The notes under the pieces: generated by a model
Databases searched by the model: none
Told to the model about the DNA's origin: nothing
Seen by the model: only the letters and a program-made list of their open reading frames with translations
Source: an uncultured Gammaproteobacteria bacterium
Lineage (GTDB): Bacteria > Patescibacteriota > Patescibacteriia > UBA2591 > UBA6264
NCBI GenBank assembly: GCA_964507075.1
Contig: CAZDOL010000020.1
Location: 1-7,182 of the forward strand
Direction: 5' to 3'
DNA: 7,182 nucleotides
Shown here: in pieces, positions 3,548 to 5,583 of the stretch
How the letters are laid out: the number at the start of each line of letters is the position of its first letter
How positions within the stretch are numbered: the first letter of the stretch is position 1
Made by a program: the position numbers and the translations under genes

Positions 3548-4249
3548 CTATTGTGTTAACGGTGAAAATGCTGCAAAATACCGAGTTTTGCATTCATTTT
3601 TCTGAATCACGGCAATCGCTAAAGTGCTGCTTGCCATGGTGCCTGCCTCTTGATACAAAACCAAACCTGCTAAAATTCCCGCTTCGGTCCTTCCTTTTTG
3701 AAATACGGAAAAACCTATAGCCAAAAACACACTCTGCTTAGCTTTCTGACAAAGAGATACACCTGCAAACATATTTGCATCCTTCGAGGCCTTCTGAAAT
3801 CCAGAAAAACCTATAAATGTAGTGGCTGAACCTTCGCTAGCTTCTTGATGGCCGGAGAAACCGACCCAAACAGTAGCTCCAGATTTTGATTTTTGGCAAA
3901 AAGAGGCACCAGCAAGCATATTTGTTTTGTCCGCCATTTGATAAACAGAGAAACCAAACAATGTGGTAGCACTCTTTCCTGCTCGTTGATATCCGCTTCC
4001 AACCAGAGCAAAGGCCTTGTCTTCTGCGTCTTGATGGACGGAGAAGACGGAAATCACATTTTTGGCTTGGGCGCTACCTAAAACCGTTATAACTGTACCA
4101 TTAATATTCAATGGCATGCAAAGTAGAGCCACTATCGCCAAGCCCTTGATGTAATAAGCTAATGATTGGAATTTTTCTGGTGTTATCACGAAAAACCAAA
4201 TCAGGAAAAACAACGTGACATTAGCAAAAAAAATCGTTAGGTTGTTCAT
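3548..4249 (-). CDS. Membrane-anchored tandem-repeat protein, 233 aa, about 11 degenerate 15-17-aa [hydrophobic-G-F/A-S-x-aromatic]-Q-x-A repeats
   Basis: The ORF is open to 4312, but that extension (MIIFYQLLFKIKKRKKRKEIE) covers the promoter and 5' UTR. The ATG at 4249 is preceded by AAAGGAG with 6-nt spacing. The N-terminus is hydrophobic (LTIFFANVTLFFLIWFFVI; GLAIVALLCMPL). Periodic repeats with an invariant Gln follow. ORFs 3514-3720(+), 3811-4011(-) and 3893-4081(+) are frame shadows. Confidence 0.8.
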   Translation of the reverse strand: MNNLTIFFANVTLFFLIWFFVITPEKFQSLAYYIKGLAIVALLCMPLNINGTVITVLGSAQAKNVISVFSVHQDAEDKAFALVGSGYQRAGKSATTLFGFSVYQMADKTNMLAGASFCQKSKSGATVWVGFSGHQEASEGSATTFIGFSGFQKASKDANMFAGVSLCQKAKQSVFLAIGFSVFQKGRTEAGILAGLVLYQEAGTMASSTLAIAVIQKNECKTRYFAAFSPLTQ

Positions 4250-4302
4250 TTCAATCTCCTTTCTTTTTTTTCTTTTTTTTATTTTAAAGAGTAATTGATA
4301 AA

Positions 4303-4331
4303 ATATTATCACATTTTTGCCTTTTTGTCAA
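4303..4331 (-). promoter_or_regulatory. Strong sigma70-type promoter (with extended -10) for the repeat-protein gene
   Basis: Minus strand: perfect TTGACA (4331-4326), a 17-nt spacer ending in TGA (TGn, 4311-4309), then TAATAT (4308-4303). The implied TSS near 4296 gives a ~47-nt A-rich leader ending in AGGAG. Confidence 0.65.
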
Positions 4332-4558
4332 GGTAAAAAATTCACTAAATAAAACTACATCTTCGCCCAAACCGCGAACCTTACAAGACTAACCAAAAAA
4401 ACAACTTCTTTTTGGTAAAAAAATCTATCATTCAATATTATCGCCAAACAAACGCCGACAAATTAAAATTACTCCTTAAAAGTTTTATGGCCTTGCGTAA
4501 TTCATGTTGGCCAATGCCCTTATTATATTACTCGCGAACAGCAAGCTTCTCTCCTGTG

Positions 4559-4838
4559 TTATATTTTTCTAATAATGGCAAAGCTCTTTTGTCCCCCCAA
4601 TTGCCCTAAAGTCCAAATAGCACTATTTTTCCCATATTGACTAGATTCATCAGCGATTAACTTCATTAATGCGTCAACGCACTCGCCTCCATAATCTCTC
4701 TGAACTGATTCACATTCTTCTTTTACACCATAACGAATCCAAGTGCAAGTAATAAAAAAACACAAATAAGAAGAGCAAAATTCCTACTCCAACAACACAC
4801 CCAATTAAATCTTTATCAATTTTTTGAAAAATCTTCAT
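4559..4838 (-). pseudogene. Frameshifted gene for a TM-anchored HEAT-like repeat protein (break at the A7/T7 run 4754-4760)
   Basis: The ATG at 4838 opens MKIFQKIDKDLIGCVVGVGILLFLFVFFYY..., which stops at 4710. The track ORF 4559-4765 (TTG start) continues in the +1 frame with ECVDALMKLIADESSQYGKNSAIWTLGQLGG, a HEAT/PBS-lyase-like pattern. Removing one T from the T7 run fuses the two frames into a ~92-aa product. A further HEAT-like fragment (SLLFASNIIRALANMNYARP) lies in a third frame down to 4485. Confidence 0.5.
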
Positions 4839-4869
4839 ATATTTAATTAAAAAATTATTATTTCGGATA

Positions 4870-5013
4870 TTAAAAAATGTTTTCAACTGATTCTCTGAAA
4901 ACCCTATATATCTTGAAAGCCAATCTCAAAGATGAGATGTATTTTATTTTTTCGATGGCAATAATAGTCTGACGAGTAACGCCCATCTTTGCTTGCTGAA
5001 CAACAAAAAGCTC
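4870..5013 (-). pseudogene. N-terminally truncated XRE/HTH_3-type transcriptional regulator remnant; not in the supplied ORF track
   Basis: Hand translation from the ATG at 4986: MGVTRQTIIAIEKIKYISSLRLAFKIYRVFRESVENIF (38 aa, TAA at 4872-4870). This matches the C-terminal two-thirds of small ~65-aa HTH regulators (GVSRQTI.aiEkGkYnPSL.LAlKIA.vF...vEeiF). In-frame similarity continues upstream (VVQQAK) only to a TAG at 5016-5014 inside the neighbouring terminator hairpin. Helix 1 and a proper start are missing, and conserved G and NP positions are substituted. Confidence 0.55.
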
Positions 5014-5030
5014 CTACGTTAGGAGCTTTT
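5006..5030. terminator. Rho-independent terminator downstream of the CxxC-x17-CxxC gene (bidirectional geometry)
   Basis: AAAAGCTCCT (5006-5015) pairs perfectly with AGGAGCTTTT (5021-5030) around a 5-nt ACGTT loop. On the minus strand it is followed by TTTTTGTTGTT. It lies 68 nt after the stop at 5098. Confidence 0.7.
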
Positions 5031-5097
5031 GTTAAATTGAATAGTATATATTTCCAGTCAGATTTTTTTACAAAATCAGCACTGTAAATGCATTTTC

Positions 5098-5583
5098 TTA
5101 TTTTTTTGCTTTTTTGGAAACCTTTTTCGCTACTTTCTTAACCTTAACAACTGGAGCTTTTTTCGCTACTTTCTTAACCTTCTCTTTTGCTACCAAGGGC
5201 TTAACATTTGTTATAGCTTCTACTATCTTAATAAGCTTATCCATTTTGACATTCAATGCCTCTAACTGCTTCTTGAATTCACTATTACTTCCTTTGCTAT
5301 CATTGCTCCCGAAATCAGCTTTAGGATAAGTTTTGTAATTACTAAAATTTTTCTGTGGAAATCTATCTCCTCCCCTCTTGTTTTCGGCATCTTTTTTCAT
5401 TCCAAAACAAACGCTACAATACACTGGCTTGCCTTCGGTTGGACGAAAAGGTACTTCGCAGGTTTTTCCACATTGAGCACAAACTGCTTGATGCATAGTA
5501 ACTGGACCACGGTCTCGTCTACCAAATCCGCCCCTATTGCCCCCGCTAAAATGTTTTCTTCCGTCTTGTCTATAATCTCCCAT
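5098..5583 (-). CDS. CxxC-x17-CxxC zinc-ribbon domain protein, 161 aa, with an RGG-like N-terminus and a Lys-rich KKVAKK C-terminal tail
   Basis: CAQCGKTCEVPFRPTEGKPVYCSVCF has exactly CxxC, 17 residues, then CxxC, as in the CxxC-x17-CxxC family. The N-terminus is GGNRGGFGRRDRG. The C-terminus is VKKVAKKAPVVKVKKVAKKVSKKAKK, encoded in part by a perfect 23-nt direct repeat (5123-5145 and 5159-5181). Confidence 0.85.
   Translation of the reverse strand: MGDYRQDGRKHFSGGNRGGFGRRDRGPVTMHQAVCAQCGKTCEVPFRPTEGKPVYCSVCFGMKKDAENKRGGDRFPQKNFSNYKTYPKADFGSNDSKGSNSEFKKQLEALNVKMDKLIKIVEAITNVKPLVAKEKVKKVAKKAPVVKVKKVAKKVSKKAKK

Follow-up and report, generated by a model that had tools for sequence, protein, structure and literature searches.

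What kind of protein is made when a short hydrophobic N-terminus is followed by nothing but degenerate, glutamine-centred repeats? The question is raised by an open reading frame (ORF) on the minus strand of a 7,182-nt stretch of contig CAZDOL010000020.1 (hereafter the window), in whose product the original prediction, drawn from the letters of the DNA, recognised no family. Translation places the 233-aa coding sequence, with its stop codon, at 3548..4249 (ATG at 4249..4247, TAG at 3550..3548). Sequence comparison indicates that this is a real, conserved gene, and that its product is a member of a sizeable, unnamed membrane-protein family, so far seen only in Patescibacteria (Candidate Phyla Radiation, CPR). 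The repeat region is predicted to form a β-solenoid with one 16-residue repeat per rung. We favour the view that this solenoid is a membrane-tethered rigid rod, extracytoplasmic and with an envelope-structural or adhesive role, and hold it with about as much belief as doubt.

The family was delineated by an exhaustive phmmer search covering 1.84 billion cluster representatives. It returned 214 representatives at E ≤ 1e-3 and 142 at E ≤ 1e-10, the latter comprising the window's own protein and 141 others with E values from 6e-31 to 1e-10. The best relatives were 37-45% identical across their full length. A word-indexed homologue search returned only the query itself, and two more proteins when a profile was used. 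Thirty homologues were aligned (alignment A1), and a hidden Markov model derived from A1 scored the window gene at 3e-83; for the genome scan a tighter 8-sequence alignment was used, with the pattern NINGN.FT. Genome matches came from Candidatus Yanofskybacteria (three), Candidatus Saccharibacteria (one) and metagenome-assembled genomes (MAGs) of the Patescibacteria group, and all relatives carrying an organism name were Patescibacteria. Those in Yanofskybacteria and Magasanikbacteria appear in NCBI and UniProt as hypothetical or uncharacterized proteins; OGN02398.1 (UniProt A0A1F8GHQ7) and OGM99226.1 (A0A1F8EEE1) are example members.

From N- to C-terminus, the window protein divides into the following parts.

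4181..4240, minus strand: hydrophobic helix 1, predicted transmembrane anchor (residues 4-23, TIFFANVTLFFLIWFFVIT)
4109..4165, minus strand: hydrophobic helix 2, putative second membrane span or signal anchor (residues 29-47)
4058..4108, minus strand: predicted N-terminal cap rung of the solenoid (residues 48-64, NINGTVITVLGSAQAKN)
3578..4057, minus strand: ten Gln-centred repeats of 15-17 aa (residues 65-224), each predicted to be one β-solenoid rung
3551..3577, minus strand: predicted C-terminal cap (residues 225-233, FAAFSPLTQ; family motif [RK]-x-F-[AG]-x-[WF]-S-x-L)

This layout bears out the earlier description of a hydrophobic N-terminus with two segments followed by a repeat body, for which translation, hydropathy and autocorrelation agree. 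The eleven units that had been quoted are likewise contiguous and correct in the translated 233-aa ORF. In A1 the same architecture is fixed throughout the family: an M-x-N start and helix 1 are joined by a K/R-rich loop to helix 2, whose end reads ALLCxPxNI; next come a strongly conserved first rung (NINGNVFTVLGNA..EK.xYSxFSxYQ), 16-residue repeats in variable number, and the end motif [RK]xF[AG]x[WF]SxL. The conserved stretch joining helix 2 to the cap reads ALLCxPxNINGNxFTxxGNA. L43, P46, G51, G58, S67 and the repeat Gln residues are invariant in A1. The N-terminal cap is the most conserved stretch of the family (NINGNVFTVLGNA), with G51 and G58 invariant in alignments A1 and A2; at the other end F225 is nearly invariant, and the C-terminal cap motif is conserved in both alignments. 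The window protein has the M-x-N start, the helices, the cap, the repeats and the end motif, and is thus a full-length member. Other members carry about 3-23 Q-motifs within 99-326 aa, and none bears an additional domain.

The original prediction had staked itself on the repeats showing significant periodicity, and they did so. In a BLOSUM62 autocorrelation of residues 61-233 against 500 shuffles, z reached 5.8 at lag 16, 4.7 at lag 32 and 4.4-4.8 at lags 48/49, and 16 and its multiples were the only significant periods of the window protein. The repeat Gln residues (Q73, 88, 104, 119, 135, 152, 168, 184, 200 and 216) are part of the same pattern, with ten Q-Q pairs 15-17 residues apart against 2.3 ± 1.4 expected (20,000 shuffles; p about 5e-5). 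Each Gln is preceded by, in turn, H, Y, Y, C, H, F, C, F, Y and I, and is followed mostly by K/E/R and then A/S. Across the family the Q-Q spacing was 16 in 712 cases, 15 in 255 and 17 in 127. A logo of the 712 in-register units reads G(0.69)-[LIV]-[SA]-[GLA]-Y(0.59)-Q-[KRNE]-[AS](0.86)-G(0.43)-x-[DN]-A(0.66)-φ-[TV]-x-φ, where φ is a hydrophobic residue.

Mean identity between units was 28%; by their sequences the repeats are old and degenerate. The alternation of GFS-type and AG..CQK-type units that had been proposed is weak, since identity rose only from 0.28 at lag 1 to 0.32 at lag 2. The nucleotide repetition that had been noticed is present: the 11-mer AAAAACCTATA occurs at 3709 and 3805, with no further copy (expected 0.02), and a 40-mer at 3738-3777 is 78% identical to one at 3885-3924, 147 nt away. 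To judge from the DNA, the repeated 11-mer and 40-mer are the remaining traces of block duplication. Tandem Repeats Finder reported no DNA tandem array inside the gene.

Folded by AlphaFold2 (AF2) with the 30-homologue alignment, the window protein reached a mean pLDDT (predicted local distance difference test score) of 96.5 and a pTM (predicted template-modelling score) of 0.84, the five models lying between 95.7 and 96.5 in pLDDT. Helices at residues 2-21 (pLDDT above 90) and 30-44 were followed by almost uninterrupted β structure, with strands at 47-49, 52-57 and from 60 onward in the N-terminal cap and at 222-227 in the C-terminal cap. The β runs were interrupted by a 2-4-residue break at about Q+3/Q+4, the A-G-x-D turn, in 7 of the 10 repeats, and unbroken runs of 31 and 45 residues were also assigned. 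Since 'strands' of 31 and 45 residues, assigned in the manner of DSSP, point to a stacked coil and not to a meander, the modelled runs fit only the first of the two folds offered by the original prediction, a β-solenoid or a β-meander. β-solenoids rise by ~4.8 Å per rung; the ~185 residues beyond the helices would make about 11-12 rungs, and the modelled rod would be roughly 5-6 nm long. Because conservation alternates in the 712-unit logo, and by analogy with a published model of ice-nucleation protein (INP) repeats that is taken up below, we infer that the even positions (φ −4, G/φ −2, Q 0, A +2, A +6, T/V +8 and φ +10) form the core and that Ser(−3), Tyr(−1) and Lys/Glu(+1) form an exposed stripe.

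A model of this kind could mislead, and the repeats might really be a long antiparallel meander, an amyloid-like intermolecular assembly or a partly disordered chain. Consistent with such an artefact, the same sequence folded without an alignment gave a poor model of shorter, separated strands (pLDDT 43.9), and no structural neighbour exceeded TM 0.34 in the PDB or 0.46 in BFVD. AF2 does have a known bias for perfect repeats folded without evolutionary information (PMC11795689). The artefact so documented concerns perfect repeats, however, whereas the units here are only 28% identical and confidence appeared only with the alignment; for these reasons the confidence would derive from the family rather than from perfect-repeat bias. 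Agreement among the five models, the conserved caps, and a conservation pattern suited to a tight coil (small residues at fixed positions, turn Gly, alternating core positions) also argue for a solenoid, and we consider an artefact clearly unlikely.

The window protein matched no Pfam family at E ≤ 10. Searches of Pfam, NCBIfam (30 members), PHROGs and PADLOC (three members) gave scattered chance matches only, all with E > 0.008, and the PDB sequences contained nothing at E ≤ 10 for either the single protein or the family profile. Curlin (PF07012), pentapeptide (PF00805 and related) and hexapeptide (PF00132) repeats agreed with the protein neither in profile nor in period (about 22, 5 or 6). 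A Foldseek search with the AF2 model found no significant neighbour (best E = 0.38 and TM at most 0.34 in the PDB; best E = 0.2 in BFVD). The claim that the protein belongs to no known family thus stands for Pfam, NCBIfam, PHROGs, PADLOC, PDB sequences, and PDB and BFVD folds.

Nearly all of the weak PDB fold matches were nevertheless β-helices, among them LpxA/LpxD/GlmU, the budworm antifreeze protein and TPS domains. The nearest, the Choristoneura fumiferana antifreeze protein (15-residue rungs) and LpxA/LpxD/GlmU, are all narrow parallel β-helices, matched at E values of 0.4-7 and TM of at most 0.34. The window protein lacks the Thr ladders, disulfide-braced core and hexapeptide periodicity of these folds. 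There is likeness as well to curli CsgA (curlin, PF07012), whose imperfect repeats stack as a β-solenoid with Gln/Asn ladders, in that the present family too is predicted to be an imperfect-repeat β-solenoid with a Gln ladder. Curlin repeats, however, are 19-23 residues long (S-x5-Q-x-G-x-G-N-x-A-x3-Q), and the proteins are secreted and polymerise into amyloid, whereas the window protein has a period of 16, a predicted membrane anchor and caps, and no Pfam match.

Closest in repeat geometry is the INP repeat (InaZ/PbINP; PF00818; consensus GYGSTxTAxxxSxLxA), with which the family has its 16-residue period in common. INPs have a membrane-associated N-terminus and a C-terminal cap, in both of which they resemble this family. 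We compared the family profile with that of real INP fragments (P0157-P0160, which carry PF00818 as a precomputed Pfam match) in all 16 circular registers. The best register scored 1.78 against −5.65 for the next (column-permutation p = 0.04, the null being the best of 16). It sets family G-L-S-G-Y-Q-K-A-G-N-D-A against INP G-Y-G-S-T-Q-T-A-G-E-D-S, so that G, Q, A, G, D and a small residue (A/S) coincide. An hhalign comparison of A1 with INP repeats (alignment A3) gave 62 columns in the same register at a pairwise E of 0.0046 and a probability of 7.6%, a weak match. In the published model each INP repeat is one 16-residue rung with Gly-rich turns; Gln residues form a ladder inside the coil and Tyr residues an exposed one, and the C-terminus acts as a cap (PMC3196904).

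These resemblances raise the idea that the family is a distant relative or functional analogue of ice-nucleation or ice-binding proteins, whose flat repetitive face would order water or bind ice, mineral or glycan. We regard it as very improbable. Homology to INPs does not follow from a similarity this weak (hhalign probability 7.6%, p = 0.04), and Gly/Ala/Gln placement could be forced by 16-residue coil geometry, that is, by convergence. PF00818 was unmatched by the window protein at E ≤ 10 and by 30 members at E ≤ 1, and the INP query had no entry among the PDB sequences. The water-ordering TxT and SxL[TI] motifs of INPs are absent from the family logo, and the INP Tyr lies four residues before Gln, whereas that of the family adjoins it. 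INP arrays run to 50-80 rungs against about 10-12 here (ten full repeats; 3-23 in the family), which makes the present arrays five- to eight-fold shorter. The family anchor is a predicted helical hairpin in a CPR cell, whereas INPs are associated with the outer membrane in Gammaproteobacteria; the named hosts of the family are groundwater and aquifer CPR and are not known ice nucleators. On sequence grounds, then, membership of the INP family is unsupported, and coil geometry is what the two have in common. In the search for INP genes, a plasmid look-up returned copper-resistance CopB repeats only. Three metagenomic proteins of 216-249 aa (P0161, P0162 and P0163) carry PF00818 yet are far shorter than INPs; they have 8-residue STQTAGDG/STLTAGxx units between globular N- and C-terminal domains.

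On which side of the membrane would the solenoid lie? Helix 1 has a Kyte-Doolittle 19-aa mean of up to 2.43 (residues 4-22), and its uncharged run has a family median of 22 residues. The region of helix 2, which ends in the family-invariant L43/P46 motif (ALLCxPxNI), reaches 1.83 (residues 37-55). We counted charges in 107 family members with an intact N-terminus. Ahead of helix 1 there is a tail of 2 residues (median) with 0.28 K/R; the inter-helix loop averages 3.6 K/R, and 0.98 K/R fall in the 20 residues past helix 2. The loop was the most positive region in 88 of the 107, equal in 6 and less positive in 13. By the positive-inside rule such a loop would be cytoplasmic, which would put the solenoid outside if helix 2 spans the membrane. 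Because the uncharged run before the Pro of helix 2 is short (median 10), a membrane-spanning helix 2 is likely, not certain. These charge counts make it somewhat probable that the solenoid domain lies outside the cytoplasmic membrane. A lipoprotein was considered and rejected: no lipobox surrounds the Cys of ALLCxP, which has Leu at both −1 and −2, and S/A/T/F replace this Cys in relatives.

The mechanism that we favour would then run as follows. The N-terminal pair of hydrophobic helices would tether the protein to the cytoplasmic membrane, and the remaining ~185 residues would coil as a single-chain β-solenoid, closed at each end by a conserved cap. Inside it, the side chains of the invariant Gln residues would be stacked in a hydrogen-bonded ladder, with G(−5) and A-G-x-D forming the two turns of each rung, while Tyr, Phe or His just ahead of Gln would make an exposed aromatic stripe flanked by Ser and Lys/Glu. 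The rod would stand on the membrane's outer side, reach into the cell envelope and act either as a rigid spacer or scaffold for the wall or a surface layer, or as an adhesive surface through its aromatic stripe. Repeat number would set rod length in different lineages.

Several points weigh against this proposal. Helix 2 has only ~10 uncharged residues (family median) before the invariant Pro; 13 of the 107 members show the opposite charge sign by the positive-inside rule, and a divergent type (P0130/P0131/P0147) has K/R in its N-tail, again with the opposite sign. The aromatic 'ladder' is irregular in the window protein itself, where His, Cys and Ile stand among the Tyr and Phe. The placing of Gln inward and Tyr outward draws on conservation parity and on analogy with the INP model (PMC3196904). 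When repeats slip out of register in an alignment, false i/i+16 couplings can arise, which would push AF2 towards a solenoid. A cell-wall gene neighbourhood was found in one lineage only, the other loci lying amid unrelated housekeeping genes. Members of the family are known from their sequences and from prediction.

Some of these points speak for a cytoplasmic, membrane-tethered scaffold, in which helix 1 alone would span the membrane (N-out, C-in) or the hairpin would return the chain inside. On this view the solenoid would sit beneath the membrane, where copies of it would associate end-to-end or side-by-side, as in a bactofilin, and organise cell-wall synthesis or division. Bactofilins (PF04519) are small β-helical proteins with N-terminal attachment to the cytoplasmic membrane and no enzymatic domain, as in this family, and they often occur in cell-wall gene neighbourhoods. 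Such a neighbourhood surrounds the family gene in two Yanofskybacteria genomes (L007 2889-8775 and L008 2933-8727), where the gene is flanked by an MsbA-like ABC exporter and mraY, with ftsW/rodA, a DD-carboxypeptidase and aspS close by; it hints at an envelope role, in one lineage only. The short helix 2, the minority with reversed charge bias and the β-helical fold prediction, with the MinC C-terminal β-helix among the weak Foldseek matches (rank 24), are consistent with a cytoplasmic scaffold too. The 88 of 107 members with a positive loop favour loop-in, domain-out, however, and the cell-wall context is not conserved outside the one lineage. Nor was a bactofilin recovered by profile or fold: PF04519 went unmatched in 30 members, and the 50 best PDB fold matches include none. 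A bactofilin winding is triangular, takes about 17-18 residues and encloses a core that is hydrophobic throughout, and the ends of the protein carry no cap and polymerise, whereas the family has a 16-residue rung, an invariant Gln, a domain probably outside the membrane, and conserved terminal caps, which speak against open-ended polymerisation. The cytoplasmic, bactofilin-like scaffold is therefore the main rival of the extracytoplasmic rod, and in our estimate an unlikely one; an AF2 artefact and an INP relationship are less likely.

We regard the family as a new repeat type within the known β-solenoid kind, unusual for its short rung and Gln ladder, and not as a new principle; many other uncharacterised CPR families exist. 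CPR bacteria (Patescibacteria) are set apart partly by families without recognisable homologues, many of them membrane or surface proteins thought to serve cell-cell interaction and to underlie the episymbiotic lifestyle (PMC6744442). The present family fits this CPR-specific pattern, with at least 214 clusters, no name in the libraries tested, and a confident model without a structural match. Few coils combine a 16-residue rung with an invariant Gln ladder, and among the families compared only INPs have the 16-residue period in common with it. An expressible member of which ~185 residues form the coil would open this coil type to experiment. An extracytoplasmic, abundant rod would be a candidate for determining how the envelope is built or how hosts are attached to, in organisms not yet culturable alone; a cytoplasmic one would be a membrane-tethered cytoskeletal element of a new kind. 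That the family is an evolutionary relative of the INP repeat, or that episymbiotic CPR cells invented the same coil independently and use it as an envelope strut or adhesin, we offer as a long shot. An INP relationship, if true, would give the first INP-like solenoid from beyond the Gammaproteobacteria. It would also provide a minimal, tractable model of the INP fold, itself still unsolved, and a hint as to how INPs arose.

Expression signals of the repeat gene were located on the minus strand; promoter-like pairs were located at homologous genes too.

4303..4331, minus strand: putative sigma-70-type promoter (−35 TTGACA at 4331..4326, 17-nt spacer, TG-extended −10 TAATAT at 4308..4303)
4256..4260, minus strand: Shine-Dalgarno (SD) sequence AGGAG, 6 nt 5′ of the ATG
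L007, L008, L010, L011, L012, L013 and L014: TTGAC[ATG] / TATAAT-like pairs upstream of family genes

Automatic gene callers place the start at GTG 4312, giving a 254-aa protein (P0001) with 21 additional residues (window 4250-4312, minus strand). We take ATG 4249 instead, because 30 aligned homologues open with M-x-N at that position, and reject GTG 4312 because the extension would overlap the gene's own promoter and SD; on this comparison the true start is ATG 4249 and the protein is the shorter, 233-aa one. In a consensus scan the TTGACA-17-TAATAT promoter scored 10/12, with TG ahead of the −10. To call it the only near-perfect promoter, as had been done, was too strong: six other sites in the window also scored 10/12, and promoter-like sites there (32) were not above chance (28.2 ± 5.9 in shuffles). 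Relatives from other genomes had a near-consensus −35/−10 pair in 7/8 cases and an AAGGAG-type SD in 7/8. Promoter and SD sequences fit independent, efficient expression of the family genes, and the protein is probably well expressed.

The SD, said to be the only strong one in the window, is indeed the sole SD among the 11 gene starts inside it. The other ten all lack one, and several of them, among the starts at 119 (+), 3323 (−), 5583 (−), 2709 (−) and 1135 (−), have a TATAAT-like box ~6-12 nt upstream. The starts with such a box look like leaderless or SD-independent initiation; the repeat gene is the sole exception in the window.

The family gene is single-copy at every locus and monocistronic; as a rule it is solitary, and at some loci the adjacent genes are encoded on the other strand. 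An operon-based function was looked for and rejected, as clustering of neighbours at 23 loci revealed no partner common to independent lineages. Two genes recurred as neighbours: aspS in six loci, from about three independent lineages (L007/L015, L008/L016/L017 and L013), and mnmA in four, as follows.

L011 6867-8030, L012 43-1188, L013 4781-5860, and L021: mnmA (tRNA 2-thiouridine synthase), adjoining the family gene

The mnmA loci belong to Saccharibacteria, Yanofskybacteria and a further MAG; the two genes diverge or converge, and the adjacency is probably conserved synteny rather than a functional link. Strain-level variation was sought and set aside, six loci from different samples being identical across the gene and its flanks.

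GC content rises to ~0.43-0.44 over window positions 3601-4000 from ~0.30 around them (or 0.42, set against 0.24-0.39). Horizontal transfer, which this bump might suggest, was rejected: the excess falls mainly on codon positions 1 and 2 (Ala/Gly/Ser-rich), and GC at codon position 3 (0.37) is within the window range. A non-coding RNA or an opposite-strand gene was rejected also, the region having no Rfam match and the homologues backing the minus-strand frame.

Within the window the neighbours are unrelated: a zf_Tbcl_2 protein, an ABC-2 transporter, a rubrerythrin, a DUF1653 protein and a Phd/RelE-like pair. Several samples of one study yielded this contig with identical sequence, and its low GC, small genes and zf_Tbcl_2 gene suggest a CPR organism as the probable source. 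Past the window end, the same contig (L001 3801-6615) carries an AbiEii toxin-like gene, a Y1 (IS200-type) transposase and an SNase-domain gene. These accessory genes lie a few kb beyond the ABC transporter, which places the repeat gene near accessory or mobile content, unlike the housekeeping surroundings in other MAGs.

The 786 nt upstream of the repeat gene (window 4312-5098, minus strand) contain no called gene and appear to hold decayed ones. A 38-aa piece at 4986..4870 (MGVTRQTIIAIEK...) matches the C-terminal half of an XRE-type helix-turn-helix regulator. A decayed transmembrane segment (ORF 4886..4710) leads through a frameshift into a HEAT-like fragment at 4765..4559 (Pfam HEAT_PBS/HEAT_2, E about 0.01). 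Elsewhere, the minus strand at 430-558 has a 42-aa Gly/Arg-rich ORF (MRNVVNISLPKETIRSEERKEGGGLGGGPRDGRGGGEGGGGR), which counts among the called genes of the longer contig L001, and the plus strand of the same interval gives a spurious proline-rich ORF.

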